Of a stretch of DNA of 64,000 bases, positions 4,255 through 51,634 are shown piece by piece (within the stretch, counting starts at the first letter, position 1; each line of letters starts with the position of its first letter). Source of the DNA: an uncultured delta proteobacterium. Its GTDB lineage: Bacteria > Myxococcota > Myxococcia > Myxococcales > Myxococcaceae. A program made the translations under genes and the position numbers. The DNA lies in contig CAVZMH010000020.1 of NCBI GenBank assembly GCA_963776345.1, positions 80,004 through 144,003 of the forward strand, given 5' to 3'. A model generated the notes under the pieces. That model had not been told where the DNA came from, searched no databases, and saw nothing but the letters and a program-made list of their open reading frames with translations.

Positions 4255-4255
4255 C

Positions 4256-5119
4256 CTAGCGGCCGTGCGCGATGCGGCGGACCACCACGCCCGCCGCGTT
4301 CATCCCGAACACGCTGGTGACAAAGCCCACGCTGCCGTTCACCTGGGTACGGTGATCGCAGGTGTGGAAGTCGTTCTCGCGGCTCGGGCAGACGCAGAGG
4401 AAGCCCTCAGTCGCCGCGTCGTAGGTGAGGGGGACCGGGGTCCGGGGCGGCTCGACCGAGTAGACGGCGGTGATGCCTGTGCGCCGGTCGGTCTCCAGGC
4501 CGTACTTTCGCTTGAGGAGCTTCCGGACGTCCTTGGCCAGCGGGTCCATGATGGTCTCCGAGAGGTCGTCGACCCGGATGGCGGTGGGGTCGAGCCGGCC
4601 GGCGGCGCCCATGCTGCTCACCACCGGGAGCCCGAGCTGCACGCAGCGGTGCAGGAGGTGCAGCTTGGCCTTCACGTTGTCGATGGCGTCGACCACGAAG
4701 TCCCAGCCGGGCTGGAGCAGCTGCTCGGAGCTCTCGGCGCGGTAGAACTCGGCGACCGGCTCGACGCTGCAGTCCGGGTTCACCTCGCGGCAACGCTGGG
4801 CCATGAGCTCGGCCTTGCTCTTGCCCACGGTGCGCACCGTCGCGTGCAGCTGGCGGTTGAGGTTGGTGACGCAGACCTCGTCGAAGTCCACGAGCGTGAG
4901 GTGTCCCACGCCGCTCCGGACCAGCCCCTCCACCGCATAGCTGCCGACGCCGCCGAGGCCGAAGACGACGACCCGGGCCCGGGCGAGCCGCTCCATGGCC
5001 TCGTCCCCGAGGAGCCGGCCGGTGCGGTCCCACCGGCGCGAGAGCCGGAAGGCGCGCGCGGTCTCGTCGCCGGGGCGTGGTGCCGGCGGGGTGGAGGGAC
5101 GGAGCGAGGGAGCGGTCAT
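4256..5119 (-). CDS. tcdA: ThiF-family tRNA threonylcarbamoyladenosine dehydratase
   Basis: VFGLGGVGSYAVEGLVRSGVG, TNLNRQL, VVDAIDN, SSMGAAGRLDP, DPLAKDVRK. Confidence 0.85.
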   Translation of the reverse strand: MTAPSLRPSTPPAPRPGDETARAFRLSRRWDRTGRLLGDEAMERLARARVVVFGLGGVGSYAVEGLVRSGVGHLTLVDFDEVCVTNLNRQLHATVRTVGKSKAELMAQRCREVNPDCSVEPVAEFYRAESSEQLLQPGWDFVVDAIDNVKAKLHLLHRCVQLGLPVVSSMGAAGRLDPTAIRVDDLSETIMDPLAKDVRKLLKRKYGLETDRRTGITAVYSVEPPRTPVPLTYDAATEGFLCVCPSRENDFHTCDHRTQVNGSVGFVTSVFGMNAAGVVVRRIAHGR

Positions 5120-5301
5120 GGGCGGCCCTTCTCTAGCGCGTCCGGGTCGGCGGTGCGCGGGCCCGTCCCACGGGCCCCCGGGACGGCCCCGGGCGACGAC
5201 CTGGCGCTCGGGCAGGAGGCGGTCGGCTCGTCGCCGGGAGCGTCGGTCTGCAGTCGCGGGGGACTGTGGACCTGGCTGGGCGACGGCTCGCGCGGGCGTC
5301 C

Positions 5302-6088
5302 TCAGAGACGGAAGGCGGGGAACAGTCGCCGGGCATTCTCGGCCACCAGCGCTCCCGTGGCCGCGACGGAGTCCCCGAGGGCCGCCGCGGTCGACTCGAC
5401 CACCCGGACCAGGAACGCCGGCTCGTTCCGGCCGCCCCGATGCGGCGCGGGGGCCTGGTCCGGCGCGTCGGTCTCGACCAGCAGCCGGTCGCGGGGGGTG
5501 AGCCGGAGCGCCTCGACCGGCTTCCGCGCCCCGGGCCAGCTCACCGGTCCGGCGAAGCTCAGGTGGCACCCGCGGGCGACGTACGCCGCGACTCGGGCCG
5601 GGCCTCCGCTGTAGCTGTGCAGCACCACGCCGGCCTCGGGCAGCTGCGCGTGGGCGAGCCACTCCTCCAGCGCGGGGTGCGCCCTCTGGCAGTGAAGGAG
5701 GAGCGGGAGCCCGTGCTTCCGGGCGAGCCGTGCGTGTGCCTCGAGCACCCGGACCTGCCGCTCCATCGGAGCCCCGGGGGCGCTGGGCCCGTCGAGCCCG
5801 CACTCTCCCACCGCGACCGCACCGCCGCTGGCCAGGAGCGCGTCCAGCCGCTCGAGCGCGGGTCCGTCACCTTCCTCGGGCAGCTCGGGCAAGCAGCTGC
5901 GGGTGGATGCCGAGTCCGACCTGGACGCGGCGGTCGCTCCGGGGCAGCGCCAGCAGCGCCTCCCAGGCGTCCGGCCCGATGGCCGGGACCAGGATGCCCT
6001 CGACACCTGCCGCCCAGGCGCGCCCGAGCACCGCCTCGCGGTCCGGGTCGAAGCGGGGGACGTCCAGGTGGCAGTGGGTGTCGATCAG
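5302..6088 (-). CDS. tatD: TatD-family hydrolase (frameshift near 5891; start uncertain)
   Basis: IDTHCHLD and GIHP in one frame; AVGECGLD, LHC, VLHSYSG and ETDAP in another. Confidence 0.85.
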
Positions 6089-6135
6089 CCGGCCGGCCCT
6101 CGTGGCAGAGCAGCCGACCCTAGGCCGGCCGGACG

Positions 6136-6345
6136 CTACTGGACCAGGACGATGCGCGCGTGCGCCGCCCGGCCAATCTCCCGGGACGAGAGCAGGCGGG
6201 CCACGTCCCTCACCTCGTTGCCCACCGTGTCGAAGGCGGCGACGATGAGCTCGCCGAGCGTGGTCTGCACCGCCTCCTGGTGCGCCCTTGCCTTCCGCGT
6301 CAACCGCTGCAGCCGCGTGCCCTTCTTCCCCGATGACTTGCGCAT
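6136..6345 (-). CDS. Small basic hypothetical protein
   Basis: MRKSSGKKG...TTLGELIVAAFDTVG, with a GGAG ribosome-binding site upstream. Confidence 0.65.
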   Translation of the reverse strand: MRKSSGKKGTRLQRLTRKARAHQEAVQTTLGELIVAAFDTVGNEVRDVARLLSSREIGRAAHARIVLVQ

Positions 6346-6565
6346 GGTCTCTCCGTAATCGCCGGGCCGGTGTCCGGCAGCTGTGTCCAGGCCCCGGAGC
6401 GGCCACTGTGCCGTCCAGGGTCTGACCGGAAGGTGTGTCCTTCGCCGGAGTCCGTGACACCGCGCGTCCGGGACCGGCCTGCAACGGGGCATCCCCGCGT
6501 CATCAGGAGCCTCCGAGGAACCCTCTCCCCGCGAGACGGGGTGGGGTGGTACGCCCTCCCACCAG

Positions 6566-7543
6566 ATGCGGATGCACGTGCTCTTCCACGACAACTGCTT
6601 CGACGGCGCGGCCAGCGCCGCCGTGTTCTCGCGCTTCTACCGGGAGCGCATCCGTCCGGACGCGACGCTCACCTACCAGGGCCTGTCACACCAGGCCAAC
6701 GGCGCCCCGGTGCTCGAGTCGGCGTTCCAGGGGGACGAGAACGCCATCGTCGATTTCCGGTACAGCCAGTCGCCCGGGCTGACCTGGTGGTTCGACCACC
6801 ACGCCTCGGCCTTCCAGACGCCGGGGGACGAGGCCCACTACCGGGCGGACACCTCGGGCAGGAAGTTCCACGACGCGCGGCGGAAGAGCTGCACGGTGTA
6901 CCTCGCCGACGTGGCGCGGGCCCGCTTCGGGTTCGACCCCGGGCCGATGACCGAGCTGCTCGAGTGGGCGGAGATCATCGACGGCGCGCAGTTCCCGAGC
7001 CCGCAGATGGCGGTGGGCCTCCGCGAGCCGGCGCTCCAGCTCATGACCGTGCTCGAGGCCAACCACGATCCGGAGCTGATCCCCGAGGTCATTCGCCTGC
7101 TCCAGCGCCACACCCTCTCCGAGGTGGCGTCGCGTCCGATGATCCAGGAGCCGTTCCGTCCGCTGCTCGAGCGGCACCAGCACAACCGCGAGCTGGTCCG
7201 GAAGAAGGCCGCCATCGACCGGGGCGTGGTCTTCTTCGACGTGGCCGACGAGGGCCTGGACGCGATGAACAAGTTCATCGCCTACGACCTCTTCCCGGAA
7301 GCGCGCTACGTGGTCTGGGTGGGGCGCGGCGCCAAGCGGGCCAAGGTGTCCATCGGCAGCAACCCCTGGCGCCCCGAGCTCCGGCGGCACGACCTCTCCG
7401 CCATCGCCGAGCGCTGGGGCGGTGGTGGGCACCCGGTGGTGGCGGCGATGAGCTTCAAGCCCGAGGAGCTGCCCCGGGCCCGCGAGGCCGCGCGGTCCAT
7501 CGTCGAGGAGCTGCGCGCCGAGCCCGTGTCCGCCTCCGCCTGA
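6566..7543 (+). CDS. DHH-family phosphoesterase
   Basis: HDNCFDG, IVDF, WFDHH, GGGGHP motifs. Confidence 0.85.
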   Translation: MRMHVLFHDNCFDGAASAAVFSRFYRERIRPDATLTYQGLSHQANGAPVLESAFQGDENAIVDFRYSQSPGLTWWFDHHASAFQTPGDEAHYRADTSGRKFHDARRKSCTVYLADVARARFGFDPGPMTELLEWAEIIDGAQFPSPQMAVGLREPALQLMTVLEANHDPELIPEVIRLLQRHTLSEVASRPMIQEPFRPLLERHQHNRELVRKKAAIDRGVVFFDVADEGLDAMNKFIAYDLFPEARYVVWVGRGAKRAKVSIGSNPWRPELRRHDLSAIAERWGGGGHPVVAAMSFKPEELPRAREAARSIVEELRAEPVSASA

Positions 7544-33939: not shown

Positions 33940-34015
<76 letters not shown>

Positions 34016-35195: not shown

Positions 35196-36032
35196 GTGAC
35201 CACCGCAGCCCCCCTGACCGTCGCCCCCGCGCCGGACCTCGCCGCCATCAAGACCCGCCAGCAGGCCACCTGGGCCAGCGGGGACTACGCCGTCATCGGC
35301 ACCACCCTCAGCATCGTCGGCGAGTCGCTCTGCGAGGCGGTGGACCTCCGCGCCGGGCAGAACGTCCTGGACGTCGCCTGCGGGAACGGCGCCGCCACCC
35401 TCGCCGCGGCGCGTCGGTTCTGCACGGTGACGGGTCTGGACTATGTCCCCTCGCTCCTGGCCCGCGCCGAGGAGCGCGCCCGCGCGGAACGGCTGGACAT
35501 CGCCTTCGTCGAGGGAGACGCCGAGGCGCTTCCCTTCCGCGACGGCCAGTTCGACGCGGTGCTCTCCACCTTCGGGGTGATGTTCACCCCCGACCACCAG
35601 CGGGCGGCGCGCGAGCTGGCGCGGGTGGTGCGCCGGGGCGGGAAGATCGGCCTGGCCTGCTGGACCCCCGACGGGTTCGTGGGCCAGATGTTCGCGCTGG
35701 TGGGCCGCACCATGCCACCCCCCGCCGGCGTCAAGCCCCCGCCGCTCTGGGGCACCGTCCCCCACTGCGAGGAGCTCTTCGGCGACACCGCCGCCTCGAT
35801 GCAGGCCCAGCAGCGCGAGTTCGCCTTCCGCTACCTGTCGCCCGAGCACTTCATCGACGTGTTCCGCCGGTTCTACGGGCCGACCCACAAGCTCTACGGG
35901 GCGCTGCCGGCAGACAAGGCGGCCACCTTCACCGGGGAGCTCACCGAGCTCATCCGCCGATTCAATCGCTCCGGCGACGGGACGGTGGTGATCCCCTCGA
36001 AGTACCTGGAGCTGGTCGTCACCCGGCGCTGA
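35196..36032 (+). CDS. Class I SAM-dependent methyltransferase
   Basis: WASGDY, VLDVACGNG, FDAVLSTFGVMF. Divergent from the AraC gene. Confidence 0.88.
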   Translation: MTTAAPLTVAPAPDLAAIKTRQQATWASGDYAVIGTTLSIVGESLCEAVDLRAGQNVLDVACGNGAATLAAARRFCTVTGLDYVPSLLARAEERARAERLDIAFVEGDAEALPFRDGQFDAVLSTFGVMFTPDHQRAARELARVVRRGGKIGLACWTPDGFVGQMFALVGRTMPPPAGVKPPPLWGTVPHCEELFGDTAASMQAQQREFAFRYLSPEHFIDVFRRFYGPTHKLYGALPADKAATFTGELTELIRRFNRSGDGTVVIPSKYLELVVTRR

Positions 36033-36281
36033 GGCGAGACGCGGCAAGCCCGCGGGCGATCCGACCTTCTCGGCGCCCGCGGGCGAACCGGCGAATGCCT
36101 GCGACAACGTCAACAGACGAGTGAGGCACCCCGCAATCGATGCGCCGCCGGGTGTCCAGACCCGCAGGCCCTGCAGCGCCGTGGGGCGCGAAACACCGTC
36201 CTCCCCTGGGTACAACGAGGGAGCCACCGCCGTGGCTCGACCGATGCACGATCTGGCCTCGACCCCGGAAGGAGGTCAGCC

Positions 36282-36755
36282 ATGCGCGTCGAGGACATCA
36301 TGACCAAGCAGCTCGAGACGTGCCGGGCGGACGATTCGCTGTGGCACGTGGCACGGAAGATGTGGGACCACGACATCGGGTGCCTGCCAGTGGAGGGAGC
36401 CGACGGGCGAGTGACCTCGGTCGTCACCGACCGGGACATCGCGATGGCGGCGTACCTCCGCGGCAAGCCGCTCGCCGAGCTCAAGGTCTCCGAGGCCATG
36501 TCGCACCGGCTGGTGACGGTCCAGCCCACCGACCCACTCCGCGTCGCCGAGGACCGGATGCGCTCCGAGCAGGTGCATCGCATCCCGGTGGTGGACGCGC
36601 TCGGGTTCCTCAAGGGGATGGTGACGGTGAACGACCTGGCGCATCACCTCCGGACGCTGAAGTCGCTGGAAGGCCTCGAGCCGGCGGAGGTGGCCGGAAC
36701 GGTCGCCGCCATCAGCAGCCCGCGCTCGGCGGCCTCGGGGACCGCCCAGGCCTGA
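36282..36755 (+). CDS. CBS-domain protein
   Basis: VEDIMT, IGCLPV, VVTDRDI, HRIPVVD, with a GGAGG ribosome-binding site. Confidence 0.88.
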   Translation: MRVEDIMTKQLETCRADDSLWHVARKMWDHDIGCLPVEGADGRVTSVVTDRDIAMAAYLRGKPLAELKVSEAMSHRLVTVQPTDPLRVAEDRMRSEQVHRIPVVDALGFLKGMVTVNDLAHHLRTLKSLEGLEPAEVAGTVAAISSPRSAASGTAQA

Positions 36756-36793
36756 TCGGTGCGGGCGGGCGCGGACCCGCCGGCCCCTGATGC

Positions 36794-37903
36794 TCAGAGC
36801 GTCCGTCGTTCGGGCCGCGCGGCCACCTCACCCACCGTGGGTGGAGAGGCCATGTGCCTGATGGCTGGCGCGACCGAGAGGACGAACGCGCCGAGCAGGC
36901 CGAGGGCGACGAGGAGTGCCCGGGGATGGATCGGGAGCAGCGCGTCCCCCGAGCTCAGGGAGGGAACGACCAGGATCTGGAAGACGAGCCAGATCCCGAC
37001 GAGCTGCCCGACCAGCACGGCCGCGAGAGCCCGGGGCGAGGACTTGCCCACCGGGTGCAGCAGTGCCGCGAAGGGCGCCGCGAAGACCAGCATCAGCATC
37101 GTGAGCCCGGCCCATCCCCAGCCCCCCTGCATTCGCCGGAGGAGGAACCCGGTCTCGTCGGGCAGGTTCCCGAACCAGATGGTGAGGAACTGCGCGGCGA
37201 AGAGGTAGCTCCAGAAGACGGTCACCGCGAGCAGCAACGCGACCGCGTCGCTCCGGTCGGAGGGCGAGAGCTCGCCACGGGCGAGCCCGAGGAGCACCAG
37301 GAGGTCCGCACCGGCGAGGAAGGTGCTGACGAAGACGAACGGCCCGATCACCGTGCTCCCGAAGACCGGATCGGGGCCGAGCACGAAGTCGAACGCCCAG
37401 ATCGACAGGACGATGGTGTAGCCGATCAGGAAGGTCACCGCGGAGGCGAGCGCCAGCTCCGCGGGCGGTCGGGAGCGCGGGCCGAACCAGACCCACGCCG
37501 CGCCGAAGAGCACCGTGCCGAGCACGATCTCCCGCGCCACCAGCACCGGCGGGGCGAGCCAGCCCCGGCTGCCGGCCACCCACGGCGCGGTCTCGGCGCC
37601 CGCGAGGACGACGACCAGCAGCGCCAGCGCGACCGGGGCGAAGACCACCGGTGCACGCCCGAGCGCCACCAGCGCTCGCGCCCAGCGGGCAGGGATGATG
37701 CGGAACATCGCCCCGAAGGCGACCGCGCCGAGCGCGCCACCGGCGAAGAACATCCAGCTGGCGATGAGCGTCCCGTAGGTGCCCGGGCTCCGCCCTCCGC
37801 CGAGCCCGGAGAGGAATGCCGCCGCGCCGGCCACGACCGCACCGCCGGCCACCGCCGCACCCCGCCGACCGACTGCAGCCTCGAGGTCCCGTCCCCAGCT
37901 CAT
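36794..37903 (-). CDS. actF: ActF-like polytopic membrane subunit
   Basis: About 10 TM helices, FWSYLFAAQFLTIWFGNLPDE, and operon position. Confidence 0.7.
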   Translation of the reverse strand: MSWGRDLEAAVGRRGAAVAGGAVVAGAAAFLSGLGGGRSPGTYGTLIASWMFFAGGALGAVAFGAMFRIIPARWARALVALGRAPVVFAPVALALLVVVLAGAETAPWVAGSRGWLAPPVLVAREIVLGTVLFGAAWVWFGPRSRPPAELALASAVTFLIGYTIVLSIWAFDFVLGPDPVFGSTVIGPFVFVSTFLAGADLLVLLGLARGELSPSDRSDAVALLLAVTVFWSYLFAAQFLTIWFGNLPDETGFLLRRMQGGWGWAGLTMLMLVFAAPFAALLHPVGKSSPRALAAVLVGQLVGIWLVFQILVVPSLSSGDALLPIHPRALLVALGLLGAFVLSVAPAIRHMASPPTVGEVAARPERRTL

Positions 37904-38424
37904 GGCTGCTGCCCTCCCTGTCCGGGGCCGCTCGTCCCGGTGCAGCCCTCGCGCTGCAGCGCCCGGACGAAGGCGACCAGGTCCCAGCGGTCCCTGGCGC
38001 TCGTCCCCTCGCGCATGGAGGGCATGGCCTTCCCCCCCGCGATCAGCGTGCCGTAGAGGTACCCGTCGCTCCGGCGGCAGATGGACAGGTGGCGAAGATT
38101 CGGAGCGGGCGGAAACTCCCTGGAGACCGGGCCATCTCCCTTGGCCTCCGGGCCGTGGCAGGGTGTGCAGAACCGGGAGAAGAGCACCTTCCCGTGGGCC
38201 TCCGCTGCGGAGTCGAAGGGCGCGGGAGGCCGCGCGTCTTCCACGTCGTCCCGGTCGGCCACCGTCTCCACCCCGCCGAGCGGCACCGCGCCCTCGGGAG
38301 CCGGCCTGGCCTCGGTGAGCGGCTGGAGCGAGGGCTGCTGCTCCATGCTCGCGGGCCAGAGGAAGCCACCCGACGTGCACCCGGAGAGCACCAGCGCGCC
38401 GAGCACCACCGGGCGGAGGTTCAT
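37900..38424 (-). CDS. actE: ActE-like monoheme cytochrome c lipoprotein
   Basis: Lipobox LSGC, CTPCHG, SDGYLYGTL...MPS, DRWDLVAFVR. Confidence 0.78.
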   Translation of the reverse strand: MNLRPVVLGALVLSGCTSGGFLWPASMEQQPSLQPLTEARPAPEGAVPLGGVETVADRDDVEDARPPAPFDSAAEAHGKVLFSRFCTPCHGPEAKGDGPVSREFPPAPNLRHLSICRRSDGYLYGTLIAGGKAMPSMREGTSARDRWDLVAFVRALQREGCTGTSGPGQGGQQP

Positions 38425-38915
38425 GGCCTCCCCTCCTGCAGCGCGCGGAGCACCGCGGCGGCCAGTGGACCCTCGAACCGCTCTGCCGGCACCACGACCA
38501 CGATCTGCTCGCTGTTCACCGCCGCCCTCGCCGCGGCGGCCACCCGCCGCCTCGCTCCTGCCGCCAGGAGGACCAGGGCGATGAAGTTCGCCGCCCCGGC
38601 GAAGAGCATCGTCAGCTCGAACATGATCACCCCGAAGGCGGGCCAGGCCAGGATCGGCTTGCCCCCGACCACCAGGCCCAGCGAGCGCGAGGTGAGCGCC
38701 TGCAGCAGCGCCGCGCAGGTCAGCCCCGTCACCGCGCCGGCGAGCGCGACCTTGCCCAGGACCGGCCAGGGTCCGGGGCGCCCGGTGAGGTGGACCACCG
38801 GGAAGGGCGCGGGGCTGACCACCCGTGCGTCGGTCACTCCGGCCTCGTGGAGGCGCCGCAGGGCGCGGGCCGCCGCGTCGGGGTCGGCGAAGAGGGTCAC
38901 CCGCGGCTCAGGCAT
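38421..38915 (-). CDS. actD: ActD-like (DUF3341) membrane subunit
   Basis: SPAPFP, VGGKP, IMFELTMLF. Confidence 0.72.
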   Translation of the reverse strand: MPEPRVTLFADPDAAARALRRLHEAGVTDARVVSPAPFPVVHLTGRPGPWPVLGKVALAGAVTGLTCAALLQALTSRSLGLVVGGKPILAWPAFGVIMFELTMLFAGAANFIALVLLAAGARRRVAAAARAAVNSEQIVVVVPAERFEGPLAAAVLRALQEGRP

Positions 38916-40242
38916 GGCCGGGCTCCATCCCGGGCTCGTGGGCCGCGGCGTGCTGCCGCTCCATCGTCTCGGCCACCGAGATCGAGGGGAAGATCTTGAT
39001 GAAGAGCAGGAAGAGGGTGAAGAACCAGCCGAAGCCGCCGAGGCAGATCAGCAGCTCCGGCACGGTGGGGCGGTAGAACCCCCAGTTCTGCGGCAGGTAG
39101 TGGTGGGCGAGGGTGGTGACGATGAACATGAAGCGCTCGAACCACATCCCGACCGAGACCAGCACCGAGATGATCACCAGCGCCGGGAGGCTCCGGCGCA
39201 CCCGGCCCCAGAAGCAGGCCAGCGGCGCGACGCTGTTGCAGACGATGACCAGCCAGAAGACCCAGGCGTAGGTTCCGGTGGGCCGCCAGCGGAACACCTC
39301 GGCCTCGGCCTGGCTCCCGTGGAAGAAGGCCATGAAGAACTCGGTGGCGTAGGTGAAGGTCATCACCAGCGAGGCCGCCAGGAGCAGCTTGGAGAGCATC
39401 TCGAAGTGCTCGGGCCGGATGTACCGCTCCAGCCGGTAGCCGCGGCGCAGTCCGGCGAGGAGCAGGATGGCCATCGCGATGCCGGAGAAGATGGCCCCGG
39501 CCACGAAGTACGGGGCGAAGATCGACGAGTGCCACCCCGGCATCACCGACATGGCGAAGTCCCAGGAGACGACGCTGTGCACCGAGACCGCCAGGGGGAT
39601 GACCACCCCCGCGAAGATGGGGTACGCCTTCTCGAACAGCGCCCACTCCGCGTCGGTGCCGGAGAAGCCGAGCGACAGCACGCGGTAGAGCGGCCGCCGC
39701 CATCCCGTCACCCGCCGGGCCAGCATCGCCAGGTCCGGCAGCATCCCCATGTAGAGGAACAGCGCGCTCACCGTGACGTAGGAGCTGATGGCGAACACGT
39801 CCCAGGTGAGCGGGGAGCGGAAGTTCGGCCAGAGCTGGCGCTGGTTGGGGTAGGCGAGCACGAAGTAGAAGAGCCACGAGCGCCCGATGTGGATGATCGG
39901 GTACAGGCCGGCGGTGAGGATGGTGATCACCGTCATCGCCTCCGCCGACCGTCCGATCGCGGCCCGCAGCGGCGACCGGGCGAAGAAGAGGATGGCCGAG
40001 ACCAGCGTGCCGGAGTGGCTCACGCCGATGAAGAAGACGAAGGTGGTGATGAGCGCCCCCCACATCACCGGCTCGTTCAGGCCGAAGACGCCCAGGCCCC
40101 GGCGGAGCGCCAGCGACCAGGCCACTCCTCCCACCACCACCAGGCCCGCGGAGAGCCCGAGCCCGAGCCAGTAGCGCCAGCTGGTCCGGGACATGGTCCC
40201 CACCATGTCGCGCTCGATGCGGGTGAGGTCAGGGGCGTCCAC
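38908..40242 (-). CDS. actC: NrfD/ActC quinone-interacting membrane subunit
   Basis: FVFFIGVSHSGTLVSAIL, WPNFRSPLTWDVFAISSY, SVHSVVSWDFA, WHSSIFAPYFVAGAIFSG, GMWFERF. Confidence 0.88.
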   Translation of the reverse strand: MDAPDLTRIERDMVGTMSRTSWRYWLGLGLSAGLVVVGGVAWSLALRRGLGVFGLNEPVMWGALITTFVFFIGVSHSGTLVSAILFFARSPLRAAIGRSAEAMTVITILTAGLYPIIHIGRSWLFYFVLAYPNQRQLWPNFRSPLTWDVFAISSYVTVSALFLYMGMLPDLAMLARRVTGWRRPLYRVLSLGFSGTDAEWALFEKAYPIFAGVVIPLAVSVHSVVSWDFAMSVMPGWHSSIFAPYFVAGAIFSGIAMAILLLAGLRRGYRLERYIRPEHFEMLSKLLLAASLVMTFTYATEFFMAFFHGSQAEAEVFRWRPTGTYAWVFWLVIVCNSVAPLACFWGRVRRSLPALVIISVLVSVGMWFERFMFIVTTLAHHYLPQNWGFYRPTVPELLICLGGFGWFFTLFLLFIKIFPSISVAETMERQHAAAHEPGMEPGHA

Positions 40243-40243
40243 G

Positions 40244-43000
40244 TCAGGCCTTCTCTCGTCTGCGGGCGAGGTAGAGCACGCCCGGCTGGGTGTTCAGCTC
40301 CTCGAGGAGCCGGTAGGCCCGGCCGTCGCGCGCGAGGCGGGAGATCTCCGAGTCCGGGTCGTGGAGGTCTCCGAAGACGATGGCCCGGGTGGGGCAGGAG
40401 GCCGCGCAGGCGGAGATGACCTCGCCGTCGCGCACCTTGCGGTTCTCCATCTTCGCCTTCTCCTGCCCGGCGGTGACCCGCTGCACGCAGAGGGTGCACT
40501 TCTCGCTCACCCCGCGCTCGCGCACGCTCACGTCCGGATTGAGCCCCAGGCGGGACAGCCCGTGGTGAGGCCAGTCGAAGAAGTTGAAGCGGCGCACGCC
40601 GTAGGGACAGTTGTTCTCGCAGTACCGGGTGCCGATGCAGCGCGGGTAGATCTGGGCGTTGAGCCCCTCGCGGGTGTGGTACGTGGCGAAGGTCGGGCAG
40701 ACCACCTCGCACGGCGCGTTGGTGCAGTGCTGGCACGAGAGCGGAAGGAACGACGGCTCGACGCCTCCCGGCCGCGGATCGAGGTAAGCGTGGATCCGCA
40801 TCCAGGACATCGACCGGCCGCGCTGGACCTCCTCGGCGCCCACCACCGGCAGGTTGTTCTCGACGTAGCAGGCGGCGGTGCAGGTTCCGCATCCCGTGCA
40901 CCGGTCGAGGTCCACCGCCATCCCCCAGCGGTGCTCGGGGTGCTCCACCGGCGAATACATCTGGGGGAGCGGATGGCGGGGAGGCAGGCTCGGCTGGGCC
41001 CCGCTCACGCTGCGCGCCAGCTCCCGCCCGTGCTGCTCCGAGGAGCCCTCGACCAGCGACGAAGGTTTCCTCTCCCCCGTGCGGCGGGCGGTCACCCGCA
41101 CCTCGAGGCCGGGCGGGCCCTCTCCCTCGAGCAACCGTGCAGCGTCGGGCGCAGGGAGCGCGGCCACCCCGGCACGGACGCCCGCGGTGACGTGCGCCGG
41201 CAGGGCCACCTCGCCGCCCGGACCGCTCAGCGCCACCACGTCGCCCTCCTGCACACCCAGCGGTGCCGCCGTGCTCGGATGGAGCTCGATCCAGCCCGTC
41301 CACGCATAGCCGGACAGCGGATCGGGGATCTCCTGGAGGAGGGCGCTCCGGGGGACCCGACCGTCGAGGTGGCGGAGGCCGGGCATCGCCAGCAGGGTGA
41401 GCCCGCCGGCCGGACCGCGGGACTTTGCGGGTCCGGGGAGCTCGGCGAGAGCGCCCGAGGCGAGCGCCACCGGAACGGCAGCCGCCTCGCTCAGCTTCAA
41501 CCCGTGCTCCCGCTCCTTGACGTCGTAGGCCGCGCGCACCACGTCGGCCCAGGTCCCCTCGGGGAGCCCGGCGGTCCGTCCCAGCGTCCGTGCGGCTCCG
41601 AGCAGCATGTCGGCCGCGGCGCGGGTGTCCAGCACCGGCGTCATCACCGGCTGCTGCACACCGGTCACCCCTGGCCGGGCCGGGGCGTCTCCCCAGGACT
41701 CGAGGAAGTGGTGATCCGGCAGGACCAGGTGCGCCCGGCCGGAGGTGTCATCGAGCTCCGTGGTCAGCGCCACCACGAAGGGGATCTGTCCGAGGGCCGC
41801 GGCGAAGCTCGGGTGCCCGCTGCCGATCGGATCCGCGTGGTGGAGCACCAGCGCGCCGATCGCCCCCGCGCGCGCCTGGCGCGCCAGCTCGGCCAGGTCC
41901 CACCCGGGCGGCTCCTCCGGGCGGGAGAGGAAGGCCAGGGCGGCGTTTCCCAGCAGCGCGTTCAGGACGGTCACTGCCTCGGCCAGCCGGCCCGCCTGGC
42001 TTCCGGCCAGGGCGCGTCCCGGCCCGAGAACCAGCCCCGGGCGATGGTCGAGCAGCGCCTGCGCCAGCCCCGAGATGCGCTCCGCGGTCAGCCCGGTGCG
42101 CGCCGCGACCGTCCTGGGGTCGAAGCCGGCCAGCCGCTCGCCCAGCGCGGCCCCGAGGTGAGGCGCGAGGTCCGGTGGGGGCGCCCGCTGGAGGACCTGA
42201 CGACAGAGCCCCAGCACCAGGGCCAGCTCGCTCCCCGGCTCCATCGCGAGCCACTCGTCGCACGAGGCGGCGGTCAGCGACAGCCTCGGGCCCACGTAGA
42301 TCGAGCGGCCACCCGCGGCGCGCTGCTCGGCGAGTCCCCGGGCGGACTCGACCGGCGAGCCCTCCTCGACGAAGTCGTCGCCCACCGAGAGGATGAGGCG
42401 GGCGGCCTCGAGCCGGCGCACCGGCACCGCATCGGACCCGAGCGCCCGCCGCTGTCCCTCGCGGAGCCAGGGACGCGCGGTGGGCTCGAACACCGCCCGG
42501 TGCGCCGGGGGCTGTCCCAGCGCTCCGAGCCAGGCGGTCAGGAAGCCCCCGAGCAGCCCCGGCTCGTGGCGGGTGAGCACCACCACCGCCCTTCCCGAGT
42601 CGAGGGCGGTCTTCAGGCCGCCCGCCAGCGCCTTCTCCGCCTCGGGCCAGCCCGTCGGCTTCCCGGCCGCCCATGGACTGGCGAGCCGGCCCGGACCGTA
42701 GAGCGACTCGATGGAGGCCTGGCCGGCGGGGCAGAGGCCTCCCCGGCTCACGGGATGCTCCGGGTTTCCCTCCACCATCACCGCCCGTCCCTCGCGCACC
42801 CGGGCCGTCATGCCGCAGGCCGCGGGACAGGCGCGGCAGGTGGTCCGGTACCACCGGGCCACCCCGGCGACCGCGTCGTCCGGAGGCGTGACGTAGGGCA
42901 CCATCGAGCGTGGCAGCCGGCTCTTGCATCCCTCGACCAGGCTGGTGCCCAGCACCGTCGCCGCCGAGCCGAGGAACGTCCGTCTTCCCAGTCGCTTCAT
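40244..43000 (-). CDS. actB: ActB/QrcBC-like molybdopterin-oxidoreductase-fold + Fe-S subunit
   Basis: Tat RRTFL and lipobox, N-terminal CRACPAAC...GGLC, then C-terminal CTGCGTCTAAC, CQHCTNAPC, CIGTRYCENNCP, CTLC. Confidence 0.85.
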   Translation of the reverse strand: MKRLGRRTFLGSAATVLGTSLVEGCKSRLPRSMVPYVTPPDDAVAGVARWYRTTCRACPAACGMTARVREGRAVMVEGNPEHPVSRGGLCPAGQASIESLYGPGRLASPWAAGKPTGWPEAEKALAGGLKTALDSGRAVVVLTRHEPGLLGGFLTAWLGALGQPPAHRAVFEPTARPWLREGQRRALGSDAVPVRRLEAARLILSVGDDFVEEGSPVESARGLAEQRAAGGRSIYVGPRLSLTAASCDEWLAMEPGSELALVLGLCRQVLQRAPPPDLAPHLGAALGERLAGFDPRTVAARTGLTAERISGLAQALLDHRPGLVLGPGRALAGSQAGRLAEAVTVLNALLGNAALAFLSRPEEPPGWDLAELARQARAGAIGALVLHHADPIGSGHPSFAAALGQIPFVVALTTELDDTSGRAHLVLPDHHFLESWGDAPARPGVTGVQQPVMTPVLDTRAAADMLLGAARTLGRTAGLPEGTWADVVRAAYDVKEREHGLKLSEAAAVPVALASGALAELPGPAKSRGPAGGLTLLAMPGLRHLDGRVPRSALLQEIPDPLSGYAWTGWIELHPSTAAPLGVQEGDVVALSGPGGEVALPAHVTAGVRAGVAALPAPDAARLLEGEGPPGLEVRVTARRTGERKPSSLVEGSSEQHGRELARSVSGAQPSLPPRHPLPQMYSPVEHPEHRWGMAVDLDRCTGCGTCTAACYVENNLPVVGAEEVQRGRSMSWMRIHAYLDPRPGGVEPSFLPLSCQHCTNAPCEVVCPTFATYHTREGLNAQIYPRCIGTRYCENNCPYGVRRFNFFDWPHHGLSRLGLNPDVSVRERGVSEKCTLCVQRVTAGQEKAKMENRKVRDGEVISACAASCPTRAIVFGDLHDPDSEISRLARDGRAYRLLEELNTQPGVLYLARRREKA

Positions 43001-43013
43001 CCTCGGGGCTCCC

Positions 43014-43658
43014 TCAACGGTGGCAGACCACGCAGTCGCGCCGGACGTTCCTGTCCTCGTGGCAGGTGAGGCACCGGCCCATGGTGAAGGGCTCGTCCTG
43101 CCGGACGGTCCCCATCGTCGCGACGTCGCCGTGGCACTCGCTGCAGGCGACGGGCTCGCGGAAGTGCAGGTGCACCTGGTGGGTGAAGCGGACGAAGTCG
43201 GGAAGCTCGAAGACCCGTGTCCAGCGGAGCGGCTGGTCCGCGCGCACGCGGGCGGCGAGCACCTGGACCGCCGGGTTCTCCTTGGCCACGAACTTGTGGC
43301 AGCCCATGCACTTCTTGCCCGAGGGCAGACCGGCGACCGGAGACCGGACCGCGTCGGCGTGGCAGCTCAGGCAGGGGATGGCACAGTCCCCGGCGTGGAC
43401 CCGGTGGTCGAAGGGGATCTCGTCCACCGGGGCGGGCGTGCCGGGAGGCCCGAGCACCACCTGGATCGGCGGGGCCGGGCTCGACGCGGCCGGCCCCCCT
43501 TCGGGCTCCGGTGCGCACCCGCGGCGGGTGCGCGACGAGGCTGGAAGCGGTGTCCGAACTCCCGCCGGCGGGGCGAGCTCGTCCGGAGTCGCTGGCTGCT
43601 GGCAGCCGGGGGCGGCCGCCAGCACGGCGAGCAGGAGCCCGGCGATGAGAGGCCGCAT
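43014..43658 (-). CDS. actA: ActA/QrcA-like pentaheme cytochrome c
   Basis: Five CxxCH motifs (CLSCH, CMGCH, CSECH, CLTCH, CVVCH), PFDHRVH, LPDFVRFTH. Confidence 0.85.
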   Translation of the reverse strand: MRPLIAGLLLAVLAAAPGCQQPATPDELAPPAGVRTPLPASSRTRRGCAPEPEGGPAASSPAPPIQVVLGPPGTPAPVDEIPFDHRVHAGDCAIPCLSCHADAVRSPVAGLPSGKKCMGCHKFVAKENPAVQVLAARVRADQPLRWTRVFELPDFVRFTHQVHLHFREPVACSECHGDVATMGTVRQDEPFTMGRCLTCHEDRNVRRDCVVCHR

Positions 43659-43666
43659 CCCGTCGT

Positions 43667-44254
43667 TCAGCGCTTCAGCGTCAGGTTCTGGGTGACGGTC
43701 TGGCCGGCCGCGACGGTGATCGGCTTGTCAGGCGCCTTGAGGTGGGAGTTCCAGACCGCGAGCTGGTAGGTGCCGGGTGGCACGTGGGCGATGGTGAAGC
43801 CGCCCTTCTTGTCCACCGCGGCGGCGTACGGACCGGGGGCGACGAAGATGAAGGCCAGCATCTCCGGATGCATCGAGCAGAGCTGGGTGTATGCGCCCTC
43901 CTGCTGGAACTTGTACGTCCGCTCCTCGTCCTGCTTGAAGCTCCCGAGGTTGTATCCCTCGCCGTCGGGTGAGTAGACGTTGTGGGCCACGTTGTCGTGG
44001 TTGAGGAACTTGACGCTGTCCCCCTGGGTGATCACCAGAACGTGGGGGACGAAGGTCATGGACTTCTGGTCCATCGCCTTGGTCTCGGGAGTCCTGGGCG
44101 GGGCCTTCACGCCCTTCAGGTAGACCACCGTCTCCTCCAGGTACTTGGAGGGCGTCACCTCGACCTTCCCGGTGATCGTTCCGTCGGCGGCCAGCGCCGA
44201 GGAGGTCAAGGCAAGAGCGGCGAGGGTCAGGAGATTGCGCATCGATGTCATCAT
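43667..44254 (-). CDS. Periplasmic cupredoxin (type-1 Cu) with carboxypeptidase-regulatory-like domain
   Basis: Signal peptide, FVPHV, NHDNVAHNVYS, CSMHPEM ligand set, VPPGTY. Confidence 0.82.
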   Translation of the reverse strand: MMTSMRNLLTLAALALTSSALAADGTITGKVEVTPSKYLEETVVYLKGVKAPPRTPETKAMDQKSMTFVPHVLVITQGDSVKFLNHDNVAHNVYSPDGEGYNLGSFKQDEERTYKFQQEGAYTQLCSMHPEMLAFIFVAPGPYAAAVDKKGGFTIAHVPPGTYQLAVWNSHLKAPDKPITVAAGQTVTQNLTLKR

Positions 44255-44279
44255 TTCCTCGTTTCCTTCAGGATGGGTT

Positions 44280-45695
44280 TCACATGGCCCACGCGAGAAA
44301 CAGGCCGATGCTCTCGAACTCGGAGCGGTTGTTCTCGCCGCTCGACGGAGGCGCGATCTGCAGCGGGCCCCACGGCGTGGCACCGCCCTGGTATGCCTGC
44401 GGCCCGGCGCCGGTGGTCGGGAACCCCTTGGCCGACTCGTAGTCGAACACGGCGACCAGCTTGATGTTGGGACGGATCAGGAAGGCGATGCCCGGCTGGA
44501 CGTGCAGGTCATGGACCGTCGGACCGCCCTCGGGTGTCAGCCACACGGTCTCCACCCGGAGCGCCGGCACCATCCAGGGGAAGATGACGTAGGAGAGCTC
44601 GCCGAACAGCACCTTGGCCTTCACGGGGCCGCCGGTGTCGGTGCCGTGGCCGTGCGATTCGCTGTAGTAGCCCACGTTGAGCTCGGCCGAGCCCAGCTGG
44701 CCGCGAACGCCGACGCCATAGGTGTTGGCGGTGTCGCTGGCGACGGGGGCTCCTGCCGTGGTGTCGAAGCGCGAGTTCGACTGGTACGCGAAGCCGTAGA
44801 TTCCCAGCGCCGTCTCGGCCCAGGGCCGCTCCGGATCCATCCCGCTGGACTCCTCGCCGTCCAGACGCATGCCGCCGATCTTGAAGCCCACCCGCCCGTA
44901 GAAGTTGTCCGTCGGGGCGAGCCCGTGGGCGATCTTCCCGGCGTTGAGGCCCACCGCGTAGTCGATCCGGCCGGCGATGACGCCGTTGAGCTCGACGCCG
45001 GTGTAGTTGTCCACCAGCGTCCAGGAGTTCGAGTCACCCCAGTAGATGCCGGTCACCGGCACGGTGGTGACCATCGCATCGCCCAGGTACGAGGAGTGAG
45101 GCCCGAACTGGGTGACGTTGGGGAAGCCGTGGCCAACGATGAGGTTGAAGAGGTGCTTCGGACCGACGATGTCGTTGAAGAGCAGCTGCGCGTGCTCGAC
45201 ATCCACGCCGTCACTGCTGAAGGTGACCTCGAACCAGGCCGTGATGGTGTCGTCGAACGCTGCGCCGGCCCAGATGTGGCCCTCGGCCGCGAGGTCCTGG
45301 AGGGTGAAGTGCGTGGCGCTTCCGTCGGCGCTCTTCGCTGCCTCCCCGGCGCTCGAGGAGCTGGAGGGGATGATGAGCGCCTGGCCGTTGACGCCCACGG
45401 AGAGGGGGATGGCCGCCAGGATCGAGTCGGGCCACGCGGTCTTGGGGAAGGTCTTCTTGTTCGCCTCCTGTCCCATCGGCACCTGCTCGGCCTTGATGTA
45501 GTCCGAGTCCGTGCCGGGGAAGCGATAGCCGTTGCGCCGGAACGCCTCTCCGAACGGATTGAGCTTCGGATAGACGGTGTGACAGGTCAGGCAGCTCGTC
45601 TGGTACTTGCGCGCAAAGGCCGGGATCGCCCCCGCGGGGGCTGCGGCCGTGAGCACCACGACGACGAGAAGCCCACCGAGAGCACGCCTCGACAT
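44280..45695 (-). CDS. Cyc2-like fused monoheme cytochrome-porin
   Basis: Signal peptide then IPAFARKYQTSCLTCHTVYPKLNPFGEAFRRNGY. The remainder is amphipathic beta-strands ending IGLFLAWAM. Confidence 0.78.
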   Translation of the reverse strand: MSRRALGGLLVVVVLTAAAPAGAIPAFARKYQTSCLTCHTVYPKLNPFGEAFRRNGYRFPGTDSDYIKAEQVPMGQEANKKTFPKTAWPDSILAAIPLSVGVNGQALIIPSSSSSAGEAAKSADGSATHFTLQDLAAEGHIWAGAAFDDTITAWFEVTFSSDGVDVEHAQLLFNDIVGPKHLFNLIVGHGFPNVTQFGPHSSYLGDAMVTTVPVTGIYWGDSNSWTLVDNYTGVELNGVIAGRIDYAVGLNAGKIAHGLAPTDNFYGRVGFKIGGMRLDGEESSGMDPERPWAETALGIYGFAYQSNSRFDTTAGAPVASDTANTYGVGVRGQLGSAELNVGYYSESHGHGTDTGGPVKAKVLFGELSYVIFPWMVPALRVETVWLTPEGGPTVHDLHVQPGIAFLIRPNIKLVAVFDYESAKGFPTTGAGPQAYQGGATPWGPLQIAPPSSGENNRSEFESIGLFLAWAM

Positions 45696-45749
45696 GGTTC
45701 GCTCCATTCCCGACCGCAGCTGGGAAACGTCGGATGTCGCGAGGCCCGG

Positions 45750-45765
45750 TGCAAGGACGAAGCCC
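45750..45765 (-). promoter_or_regulatory. Possible sigma54 (-24/-12) promoter of the cyc2-ACIII operon
   Basis: GGGCTTCGTCCTTGCA gives GG-N10-GC with TTGCA, but the -24 match is weak. An AT-richer tract lies upstream. Confidence 0.3.
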
Positions 45766-46123
45766 CGCGCGGGTTCGAGGTTGGAACGGCACGGCAGTTC
45801 AGATGAACCACACGCGGCGCGCGGGTCTTGGCCGAGACGCAAGCAAATGACTTCATCAGTTACGCAAAGCCTGCGAACGACGAAAGGAATGCACGCAGAG
45901 ACTGCGCTTTTGCTTGCATGTCTCTGGCATCAGAAATCGAGTTGCATATGCGCAGGTTCGTTCGGGCAGGCGGTGATCCGGCACGCCGCAGACAGGACAG
46001 CGGTGGTCACCCGGCTCGCTCTGCAGGGCCTTCGCGACCGAGGGCCGCCACGGGGCTCAGCGCCGCGTCCTCGAGCCGGGGCCACACCACTCGCTGAGTC
46101 GCGCGGCTGGCTCGGCCTGAGGT

Positions 46124-47053
46124 TCAGGCCGATGCGCCGCCGTGTGCCGGCTGCTCCGGGCGTTTCTCAGGTGTGGTCCACGGCAGGGTCGACATCATTT
46201 CCCCAGTCACCCAGGTCGCGAGGAGGATGAGGAGCAGCGGCACCCACGTTCCGCCGATGCTCCGGAACATCGTCATGCTTCGCTGCACCAGCGCGGCCAC
46301 GACCACCAGGTCGAGCACTGCGACCACCAGGGTGAAGGCGACGGCCGTGTCTCGCGCCTCCCGGGCGCCGGGCAGCCGGAAGTAGTGCCAGGCAATCGCG
46401 ACGAAGATGAGCGGGGCCACGAAGGCGTGGACCCACATCGCCAGGGACGTGCTCCCGAGCGCGAGGAGCCCTGCCATCACCGCTCCGCACGCGGCCCAGC
46501 CCGCGACGGCATGCCCCAGAAGGCGGAGCGGCGAGGCCGCCGGAGGATCCACCGCCGGGCGCGGTTCCGCTGTCGGAAGCGCCCGGGCCACGTCCGCCGC
46601 CCAGGTGCGGACCCGGTCCGGGTTCCGCCAGTCACCGCCGTGGGTCCTCGCCATCGCGCTCGCCGGAAAGCCGCGCGCGTCGGCCAAGAGGCGACCCCCG
46701 AACGTCACATGCTCCTGCGCGCCGACCAGCTCGGCGAGCGCCCGCACCCGTCCCGTGGGAGGGATCGCCCCGCGATCCGCCGAGTCGTCGAGCGGCCCGC
46801 TGGAGAAGAACCACACCGGAACCTTGCGCAGCGCCTTCCGATGTCTCCAGACGAAGCGCCGGGCGTCCGCGTGCCAGCGATTCGCGTAAAGCGCGCCTCC
46901 GACGATGACCGCATCGAAGCGTGTCTCCCGGTGCGCCTCCGACGGCGGGAGAAGCACCGGCTCGTGCCCCGATCCGGCCAGCACCGCGCCCACCATCCGT
47001 GCGATTCCCTCGGTACCGCCCCGCTTCGAACCCCAGGTCACGAGGACGCGCAT
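46124..47053 (-). CDS. HemG-like flavodoxin fused to a 4-TM domain
   Basis: VLVTWGSKRGGTEGIA, IVGGALY, WFFSSGP, FGGRL, GDWRN, then hydrophobic helices. Confidence 0.75.
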   Translation of the reverse strand: MRVLVTWGSKRGGTEGIARMVGAVLAGSGHEPVLLPPSEAHRETRFDAVIVGGALYANRWHADARRFVWRHRKALRKVPVWFFSSGPLDDSADRGAIPPTGRVRALAELVGAQEHVTFGGRLLADARGFPASAMARTHGGDWRNPDRVRTWAADVARALPTAEPRPAVDPPAASPLRLLGHAVAGWAACGAVMAGLLALGSTSLAMWVHAFVAPLIFVAIAWHYFRLPGAREARDTAVAFTLVVAVLDLVVVAALVQRSMTMFRSIGGTWVPLLLILLATWVTGEMMSTLPWTTPEKRPEQPAHGGASA

Positions 47054-47070
47054 GGTCGTGCTCCTTTCCT

Positions 47071-47697
47071 CTACGGCAGGTGATGCGCGAGGTAGATCCC
47101 GAGCGGGATGATGAACGCAACCCCGAGCAGGAGCGCGGCCGCGACCAGGACGATCGCGGCTCTCGCGCGGGTGGTGCCCTGCAGGCTGGCGAGGGCGAAC
47201 ACACCGATCACCAGTCCCCAGAGGCCGAGCGGGCTGACGCTGAGGAGAAGCCCGACCGAGACGCCGGAGTAGCACACCGCGCGGAGGGTCGCCCCGAGCC
47301 CGCGGTGCGCGCCGCGGACGACGAGCGCGAGCAGGTGCACCACGACGCCGAGCACGAGCACGATCGCCGGATACAGCACCACCGGCGCCAGCGGCACGAC
47401 GAGGAGCCCGAGGAGGCGCAACGGCGTCGCCGCGGCGGCCCCGAAGGTCTGGAGGAGGAAGAGCACCGCTCCCACCGCGCCGAACAGCGCCTGGAGCAGC
47501 CAGCCGTACCAGAAGGCTTCGGTCCAGGGGACGTCGGGTCGAAGCGCGGCGAAGAACTTCCCTGGCGAGAATGCGCTCTCCCTCAGGGTGTCGATCAGCC
47601 CCGGCCCCAGCCCGAGCCGGTCTCGTTGCTCCCAGGGAGTGAGTTCGCCGGTCGCCGTGTCCACGACCACTCCGGCCCGCAATGGCTGCGTGGGCAT
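47071..47697 (-). CDS. YIP1-family membrane protein (start uncertain)
   Basis: TPWE...SPGKFF, ATLRAVCYS, five TM helices. Confidence 0.65.
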   Translation of the reverse strand: MPTQPLRAGVVVDTATGELTPWEQRDRLGLGPGLIDTLRESAFSPGKFFAALRPDVPWTEAFWYGWLLQALFGAVGAVLFLLQTFGAAAATPLRLLGLLVVPLAPVVLYPAIVLVLGVVVHLLALVVRGAHRGLGATLRAVCYSGVSVGLLLSVSPLGLWGLVIGVFALASLQGTTRARAAIVLVAAALLLGVAFIIPLGIYLAHHLP

Positions 47698-47906
47698 CCG
47701 GGCCATCTGCACAGGGTGCGCCCGGATGCTCCGTTCTTGGCCGACTGGGGGAGGGTGCATCGGCGGGGCCAACCCGTGGCTCGACCGATGCAACCCAGCC
47801 TTCGAGCAGGGAAGCCACGGACGTGACAGGGACGCGGTCGCCGCGCGGCAAGCGGCGCCGGCGGGCACCTCGACCGAACGGGGGCCCTGACGTCCAAGAG
47901 GTGACC

Positions 47907-51422: not shown

Positions 51423-51496
51423 GGCCCCGTAGCTCAACTGGATAGAGCGTCGGCCTTCTAAGCCGATGGTTGCGTGTTCGAGTCACGCCGGGGTCA
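51423..51496 (+). tRNA. tRNA-Arg(TCT)
   Basis: GGCCCCG/CGGGGTC acceptor, anticodon arm TCGGC-CTTCTAA-GCCGA, T-loop TTCGAGT. Confidence 0.95.
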
Positions 51497-51634
51497 CTGA
51501 AAGCTCGACGACTTGGCGTGCGGCTCCGGAACGTCTCAGGAGCGTCGCCTCGAGGGCTCCGGGACGACCACGGCCGCTATCGTCGTCGGCGCCGAGCAAC
51601 CGCGTGGGAGGCGGCGGCCATACGTCGCGGCGCT

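Follow-up and report, generated by a model that had tools for sequence, protein, structure and literature searches.

The 64,000-nucleotide stretch of the genome of an uncultured myxobacterium analysed in this work (referred to as the window; GenBank assembly GCA_963776345.1) carries an operon of eight genes in which a predicted haem-containing porin of the Cyc2 family and a predicted type-1 copper protein precede the six genes of an alternative complex III (ACIII). The identity of the eight parts (probable in the case of ActF), their export signals, cofactor motifs and conserved linkage are established here from sequence and predicted folds. Comparison of related loci indicates that the haem-porin and the copper protein form a conserved cassette, usually found next to a quinone-reactive enzyme, and that the whole Cyc2-cupredoxin-ACIII module is mobile. 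We propose, tentatively and at chances that we put slightly below even, that the operon constitutes an electron path between Fe(II) outside the cell and the menaquinone pool, with the inward direction favoured. The window lies on contig C20 of a genome of 5.1 Mb that is 98% complete; its G+C content is 72-75%, and its nearest protein relatives come from metagenome bins of Anaeromyxobacter and Anaeromyxobacteraceae.

The cytochrome-porin, the copper protein and the ACIII subunits

According to Keffer et al. 2021 (PMC8406198), Cyc2 proteins are defined by a signal peptide, one CXXCH motif, an upstream AXPXFAR[Q/K][T/Y] motif that is called unique to Cyc2, PXL placed 4 residues downstream, a 16-strand porin like OprO/OprP and no fewer than 365 aa in length. 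Every one of these sequence and fold features is present or predicted in the product of the first gene (471 aa). In its translation the signal peptide (MSRRALGGLLVVVVLTAAAPAGA, ending in AGA) stands before IPAF and is followed by IPAFARKY-QTS-CLTCH-TVYPK-LNPFGEAFRRNGY, or, written from the alanine, AIPAFARKY-QTS-CLTCH-TVY-PKL-NPFGEAFRRNGY. The stretch AIPAFARKY occupies residues 23-31, the single CxxCH (CLTCH) begins at residue 35 in a protein with two cysteines in all, and PKL follows CLTCH after three intervening residues (TVY). The distance between the upstream motif and the first Cys is three residues, Keffer et al. 2021 giving it as '5 amino acids upstream' (PMC8406198). Among 49 aligned relatives P25, R29, C35, C38 and H39 are invariant, and A23, F27, Y31 and P43 are kept in at least 90%. 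The AlphaFold2 model is confident (mean pLDDT, from the predicted local distance difference test, 87.5; predicted template-modelling score, pTM, 0.86) and contains 16 long strands; when it was compared with the PDB by Foldseek, OprP (2o4v) came first and OprO (4rjx, 4rjw) was within the top five.

Sequence searches of Pfam, NCBIfam and the PDB returned no match to the haem-porin. Its matches in a protein atlas are unnamed Myxococcota clusters and one cluster in which 20% carry Porin_O_P; the family is very large, its representative clusters numbering 2413 at an E-value limit of 1e-3 and 570 at one of 1e-10, and ten distant representatives bear no informative names. The Cyc2-family members reported as Fe(II) oxidases are Cyc2 of Acidithiobacillus ferrooxidans, Cyt572 of Leptospirillum and Cyc2PV-1 of Mariprofundus (PMC8406198), with Cyc2TAG1 of Ghiorsea as the fourth (PMC13692758). 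The window protein resembles them in signal peptide, motif, CXXCH, PXL, barrel and a length above 365 aa, whereas its host is no known iron oxidiser and its partner is a cupredoxin-sandwich fusion protein, a pairing that was not found described for Cyc2 in the accessible literature.

The second gene encodes a copper protein of 194 aa with a signal peptide and two domains, one a cupredoxin and one CarboxypepD_reg-like, and with matches to Pfam Copper-bind (PF00127, above the cut-off), Cupredoxin_1 and CarboxypepD_reg. The predicted site is of type 1 with a short Cys-x2-His-x2-Met loop and the full ligand set: across 29 aligned relatives Cys125, His128 and Met131 never vary, and at least 90% of the sequences retain His90. 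The AlphaFold2 model (pLDDT 94.1) has a cupredoxin fold, for which Foldseek retrieved amicyanin, pseudoazurin and plastocyanin; profile matches to amicyanin reached ~1e-9. The nearest solved structures are amicyanin, pseudoazurin, a Nitrosopumilus cupredoxin and the cupredoxin domains tethered to copper nitrite reductase (NirK). Since the NCBIfam scores against the amicyanin, pseudoazurin and plastocyanin equivalogs (17-29 bits) are far below their cut-offs (88-110), the protein belongs to none of these three and represents a family of its own.

The remaining six genes correspond to ActABCDEF. ActA has five CxxCH motifs and ActE one, as expected of an ACIII; ActB is a fusion of molybdopterin-like and 4Fe-4S halves (Pfam Molybdop_Fe4S4, Molybdopterin, Molydop_binding, Fer4_7/11) with the twin-arginine leader RRTFLGS; ActC matches NrfD (PF03916, E 5e-30) and ActD matches PF11821 (E 4.5e-22). 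Below the NCBIfam thresholds ActA matches QrcA and the two halves of ActB match QrcB and QrcC. No Pfam or NCBIfam match was obtained for ActF, which was tentatively assigned by tblastn: its identity is 29-34% to its counterparts by position in the genome's two further ACIII loci, and 9 related loci have matches at their ActF positions.

All eight genes lie on the minus strand (36794-45695) and are tightly packed, being separated by 28, 8, 13 and 1 bp and then overlapping by 8, 4 and 4 bp. The first spacer shrinks to 25 bp if the cupredoxin starts one ATG earlier. A public DNA run carries the whole operon at ~97-98% identity; relative to the window, 6 bases are deleted at 44254 and one is inserted after 44279, both in the spacer between the porin and copper-protein genes. 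A start of the copper protein at 44251, rather than further upstream, fits these two indels.

A sequence-only reading of the same stretch had taken the first gene for a Cyc2-like porin on account of PxFARKY...CxxCH and a beta-barrel, had assigned a type-1 Cu site to the second and ActABCDEF to genes three to eight, had noted no oxidase or SCO gene and had proposed modelling of the barrel. The features listed by Keffer et al., the confident 16-strand model with OprP/OprO as nearest folds, the Copper-bind match with its four conserved ligands, and the haem-motif counts, Pfam domains and tblastn matches of the Act proteins agree with these assignments, and a search of the operon and its flanks found no oxidase or SCO gene. 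The eight co-oriented genes with small overlaps likewise stand, but gaps of at most 25 bp hold only with the earlier ATG of the cupredoxin, the largest being otherwise 28 bp.

Conservation of the pair and its quinone-reactive partners

Relatives of the haem-porin were collected by a pattern scan of one genome per species, which gave at least 570 stretches, and the best 80 of these at least 570 loci were analysed. Neighbours were called by tblastn with the window proteins, the copper protein being counted as adjacent to the haem-porin up to a distance of 1.5 kb and without change of strand. The 80 loci come from Myxococcota, Acidobacteriota (including Geothrix), Bacteroidota, Ignavibacteriota, Zixibacteria, Gemmatimonadota, Eisenbacteria, Elusimicrobia, Planctomycetia and others. 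A copper protein adjoins the haem-porin in 72 of them (downstream in 63, upstream in 9) and lies 2.3-7.3 kb away in 4 more; in the last 4 it was not found, three of these sequences ending less than 1.8 kb from the porin.

The pair is followed by an ACIII in 13 of the 80 loci, of which 11 are labelled Myxococcota, 'Deltaproteobacteria' or 'Proteobacteria' and 2 Acidobacteriota. As the eight-gene set recurs, complete or as far as the contig end, in 13 other loci, its arrangement in the window is not due to chance. In a further 25 loci the same haem-porin and a copper protein of the same family lead an operon whose inner-membrane partner, in place of the ACIII of the window, is a Rieske protein with a split cytochrome b, in most cases together with a GltD-like NAD(P)H flavoprotein and a multihaem cytochrome c. 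When only the 55 loci are considered that show one of these complexes or extend for 4 kb or more on each side of the pair, a quinone-reactive complex follows the pair in 38; the other 17 show neither ACIII nor Rieske/cytochrome b within at least 4 kb on both sides, and 25 loci were too short to tell. Given these numbers (ACIII 13/80, Rieske/cytochrome b 25/80), a quinone-reactive complex is the usual partner of the pair. The gene order thus marks the haem-porin and the copper protein as a conserved cassette of two genes, which usually lies next to a quinone-reactive enzyme of the complex III type.

The Rieske/cytochrome b arrangement is exemplified by L032:9971-18383 and 24 further loci (e.g. 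L031, L035-L039, L052, L057, L060, L075 and L076) from Ignavibacteriota, Bacteroidota, Acidobacteriota (including Geothrix), Eisenbacteria and others. Its genes encode a GltD-like NAD(P)H-FAD-FeS protein, the Rieske protein, the split cytochrome b, a multihaem cytochrome c of ~650 aa and a further cytochrome c, an assembly that resembles the flavoprotein-bearing Rieske/cytochrome b complexes of anammox bacteria. Another gene order was seen in a Myxococcaceae bin (L008, contig C31 of G067), in which the copper protein, ActABCDEF and then, after ActF, the haem-porin are encoded on one strand.

Oxidase genes were not found next to any of the best 80 related loci, which makes linkage to an oxidase a feature only of a diverged copy on another contig (C3) of the window's own genome.

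Mobility of the module and further cassettes in the genome

The operon is part of an 11,149-bp segment that is missing from three congeneric genomes (Table 1). In congener G014 the matches to the window that end at 36755 and resume at 47905 are one base apart; the same junction is found in G058 and nearly the same in G078. A match to the haem-porin at E≤1e-20 was obtained in 3 of 80 other genomes sampled from the same GTDB family and in none of the three congeners. Of 12 ActB sequences placed in a maximum-likelihood tree, the 10 linked to Cyc2 are split with 100/100 support from the two ActBs encoded elsewhere in the genome (contigs C15 and C12), which suggests that Cyc2-linked ACIIIs form a lineage of their own. 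The tree, unrooted and built without outgroup from full-length matches only, comprises the window, 9 of the 13 ACIII-linked loci, C15 and C12; two Acidobacteriota sequences in it group with one Myxococcales sequence. On the grounds of the insertion and of this grouping the Cyc2-cupredoxin-ACIII module thus appears to behave as a unit that moves between genomes.

Neither an integrase nor long direct or terminal repeats were found at the 11-kb insertion, which argues against a classical mobile element. In other loci the operon is without the flavodoxin_5 and Yip1 genes that accompany it here. Some likeness exists between the two ends: a 117-nt stretch (47676-47792) and, at the opposite end, the region upstream of the CBS gene are 74% alike, and the 16-mer TGGCTCGACCGATGCA occurs at both (36233 and 47777). 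The wider region is flanked by tRNA-Pro(TGG) (33940-34014), 2.7 kb from the left end of the insertion, and tRNA-Arg(TCT) (51423-51497).

The genome contains three ACIII loci (C20, C15 and C12) and three haem-copper oxidases, of which those on C12 and C15 lie within a few kb of the ACIII genes of the same contigs. The ACIII of the window shares the ActABCDEF gene set and the cofactor motifs with characterised ACIIIs, among them that of Chloroflexus, which has a cupredoxin partner, auracyanin. It differs from them by having no attached oxidase genes and belongs to a lineage apart from the two oxidase-adjacent copies of the genome. The Chloroflexus enzyme is said to have been identified by Gao in 2009 as a menaquinol:auracyanin oxidoreductase, and Qrc, a relative of ACIII, is reportedly a menaquinone reductase.

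The diverged cassette on contig C3 consists of genes for a copper protein, a 176-aa CxxC protein, a 450-aa haem-porin, a dihaem cytochrome c, COX3, COX2, COX1, COX3 and a cytochrome c. The motif of this haem-porin reads IPAFARKY-x3-CSTCH, its likeness to the window porin being limited to a haem region of 39 residues (69% identity); the copper protein is of the window family with its ligands kept, and the oxidase is of the aa3 type. Such wiring would only make sense for the oxidation of a donor. The rus operon of Acidithiobacillus has the order cyc2-cyc1-cup-coxBACD-rus (PMC10654088). The combination typical of it (cyc2, a cyc1 dihaem c4, an aa3 oxidase and a cupredoxin together) is absent from the window, which has neither cyc1 nor cox, and occurs in the C3 cassette.

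A third copper protein of the family is encoded on contig C2. It is preceded by a gene for a CxxCH motif plus a barrel without PxFARKY, in which the frame shifts near L084:4990 (a broken gene or an assembly error), and by a 288-aa barrel-like open reading frame; genes for a Ser/Thr kinase and a sigma factor of the ECF (extracytoplasmic function) type come after it.

In the window the operon is flanked on one side by genes for a CBS-domain protein, a methyltransferase and an AraC regulator, and on the other by flavodoxin_5, Yip1 and patatin genes. A promoter scan of 36000-46400 found no sigma-70-like site. No sigma-54-like site with up to 2 mismatches was present in the upstream spacer, and the 19 matches counted in the whole window, against 16 expected, do not exceed chance. 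A weak terminator-like hairpin on the minus strand (45893-45907) within this spacer could end the flavodoxin_5/Yip1 transcript. The matches to the operon in the metatranscriptome of the same study are only scraps of 25-33 nt.

Table 1. Features of the window and of two further loci of the same genome (G000), with the basis of each assignment
Feature	Position	Strand	Basis
Cyc2-type fused monohaem cytochrome-porin, 471 aa	44280..45695	minus	motif, AlphaFold2 fold
Type-1 copper protein, cupredoxin plus CarboxypepD_reg/transthyretin-like sandwich, 194 aa, predicted periplasmic	43667..44251	minus	Pfam, AlphaFold2
ActA, pentahaem cytochrome c	43014..43658	minus	five CxxCH, Pfam Cytochrome_C7
ActB, molybdopterin-like and 4Fe-4S fusion, twin-arginine leader	40244..43000	minus	Pfam
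ActC, NrfD-type membrane subunit, predicted quinone site	38908..40242	minus	Pfam NrfD
ActD	38421..38915	minus	Pfam PF11821
ActE, monohaem cytochrome c lipoprotein	37900..38424	minus	one CxxCH, LSGC lipobox, Pfam Cytochrome_CBB3 / Cytochrom_C
Putative ActF, second polytopic membrane subunit	36794..37903	minus	tblastn to ActF positions of other ACIII loci
Upstream spacer, 428 bp, G+C ~64%, probable promoter region	45696..46123		composition, position
Insertion of 11,149 bp relative to congeners: operon, flavodoxin_5 (46124-47083), Yip1 (47071-47868)	36756..47904		genome comparison
Diverged second haem-porin cassette	contig C3, L083:5666-14429	plus	rus-operon-like gene row
Third copper protein of the family (6100-6700)	contig C2, L084:~4050-6700	plus	neighbours (see text)

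Direction of electron flow

In the proposed path the haem at the barrel would oxidise dissolved Fe(II) outside the cell and pass the electron to the type-1 copper centre of the neighbouring protein, which would carry it across the periplasm and dock on the periplasmic haems of ActA/ActE. ACIII, powered by the proton-motive force, would then reduce quinone at ActC, and the quinol produced could feed quinol-dependent reductases. The C3 pair with its dihaem cytochrome c and aa3-type oxidase would provide the energy-yielding downhill branch, and this branch together with the uphill one of the window would parallel the rus and petI operons of A. ferrooxidans. A trans-envelope conduit to the quinone pool, as well as a search for cyc2-cupredoxin-act synteny, had been put forward in the sequence-only reading; the synteny is present in 13 of the 80 related loci and the pair itself in 72, and the proposed conduit gains comparative support from these 72 loci and from the quinone-reactive complex in 38 of 55.

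The haem itself does not settle the direction of electron flow, because the potentials reported for Cyc2 proteins span the range from -130 mV (PMC13692758) to +208 mV (PMC8406198). The inward direction is favoured because the characterised members of the Cyc2 family, as far as the accessible literature describes them, are Fe(II) oxidases, because the sister cassette on C3 is wired to a terminal oxidase, because Qrc, the relative of ACIII, reportedly reduces menaquinone, and because ACIII has been proposed as the uphill link in models of neutrophilic iron oxidisers.

Several points weigh against this direction. A copper centre of typical potential would lie at ~+200 to +300 mV or more, compared with ~-74 mV for menaquinone, which would make the uphill step costly. 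To our knowledge the sole demonstrated activity of an ACIII is quinol oxidation with auracyanin as acceptor, which fits the opposite direction, and we know of no demonstration that the enzyme is reversible. The Anaeromyxobacter-like lineage is described in print as reducing Fe(III) and not as oxidising Fe(II), and cluster-3 Cyc2, present in Geobacter and Rhodoferax, is flagged by FeGenie as possibly reductive. With its likeness to the window porin confined to the haem region, the oxidase-linked C3 copy is an imperfect guide. Finally, none of the public RNA runs is listed as containing the operon.

The same conduit may work outward, with ACIII oxidising menaquinol and the electrons passing through the blue-copper protein and the haem-porin to a soluble or chelated acceptor outside the cell with a fairly high potential, for instance Fe(III) complexes, Mn(III/IV) or oxidised humics. 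We regard this as possible, if rather doubtful. It would agree with the menaquinol:auracyanin oxidoreductase activity of the Chloroflexus ACIII, with the Fe(III) reduction ascribed to the relatives of the host and with the FeGenie mark on cluster 3; besides, the pair occurs in Geothrix and in genomes of the Ignavibacteria type, taxa cited as iron reducers, and a Cyc2 haem that titrates at -130 mV implies that the family is not confined to high potentials (PMC13692758). However, iron reduction by a Cyc2-family protein was not found demonstrated in the accessible Cyc2 literature, the terminal oxidase of the C3 cassette would be unneeded for export, and a single haem in a 16-strand barrel has been argued to suit dissolved Fe2+ and not solids (PMC8406198). 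At neutral pH a type-1 copper centre would also, given its usual potentials, donate poorly to Fe(III) oxides.

That the copper protein is an acceptor of ACIII electrons on the way to oxidases or N-oxide reductases, the haem-porin serving metal handling at the outer membrane (for example the oxidation of Fe(II) or Cu(I) entering the periplasm, or iron uptake) and not respiration, seems improbable. Cupredoxins are common donors to oxidases and to nitrite and N2O reductases, the solved relatives nearest to the copper protein include the domains tethered to NirK, and the genome has three haem-copper oxidases; but porin and copper protein adjoin in 72 of 80 loci from many phyla, which speaks for a mutual action of the two, and neither the operon nor the insertion contains genes for metal resistance or uptake. 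Least probable in our view is an extracellular partner other than iron (Mn(II), reduced or oxidised humic substances, a partner cell or an electrode), which the origin of the loci, largely metagenome bins from peat, soil, groundwater and lake sediment, the proposal of humic substances as partners of Cyc2-bearing plankton (PMC6344600) and the place of Cyc2 of the electrode-oxidising Tenderia in a published tree would allow, but against which stands that the biochemical data on the family, in the texts accessible (PMC8406198, PMC13692758), all concern Fe(II).

The inward path of Fe(II)-derived electrons resembles two known schemes. Like the rus and petI operons of A. ferrooxidans, the window combines an outer-membrane Cyc2 and a cupredoxin in one operon, and the layout of the genome is alike in that one branch leads to an aa3-type oxidase (C3) and the other to an enzyme of the complex III type (window). 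It differs in that ACIII takes the place of the bc1 complex run in reverse, a separate haem-porin and copper protein are encoded for each branch, the copper protein resembles amicyanin and carries an additional sandwich domain whereas that of Acidithiobacillus is rusticyanin, and the organism is neutrophilic and organotrophic. With the Cyc2-Cyc1-ACIII model of Mariprofundus and Gallionellaceae the operon shares the three layers, that is Cyc2, a periplasmic carrier and ACIII leading to quinone; there the link was modelled on co-occurrence and expression, with a cytochrome as carrier, whereas here the layers are encoded in one operon and the predicted carrier is a copper protein.

No description of this operon, or of a conserved pair of porin and copper protein, was found in the accessible literature on Cyc2, ACIII, cupredoxins, Anaeromyxobacter, Geothrix and Melioribacter, and the supplements of McAllister 2020 and PMC12442345 contain no Anaeromyxobacter or Myxococc entry; trees deposited at figshare/Dryad may list such sequences. 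Cyc2 homologues in Myxococcota and in iron-reducing taxa are already in print, as is the co-occurrence of Cyc2 and ACIII in iron oxidisers. The sequence-only reading had known of no description of this arrangement in myxobacteria, but the finding is less singular than that reading implied. The parts are known and their connection has long been hypothesised; in this genome the connection appears to be physical and mobile.

The route from Cyc2 to the inner membrane and the role of ACIII have been at issue in models of neutrophilic iron oxidation since ~2015. Here the three layers belong to one operon, seem to move jointly between genomes and phyla, and would have a specific copper protein as carrier. 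A more far-reaching proposal, which at present we consider unlikely, is that a horizontally mobile two-gene redox cassette of the outer membrane, made up of haem-porin and blue-copper protein plugs into ACIII, Rieske/cytochrome b or an aa3 oxidase, with two of these wirings in the present genome, so that a member of a classic iron-reducing lineage would also be a facultative iron oxidiser with separate downhill (oxidase) and uphill (quinone) branches; if true, this would be the first proof at the level of genes that quinone is reached through ACIII in Cyc2-based iron oxidation. The host lineage has cultivable, genetically approachable relatives, and the finding bears on how Cyc2 matches in the metagenomes of supposed iron reducers are to be read.

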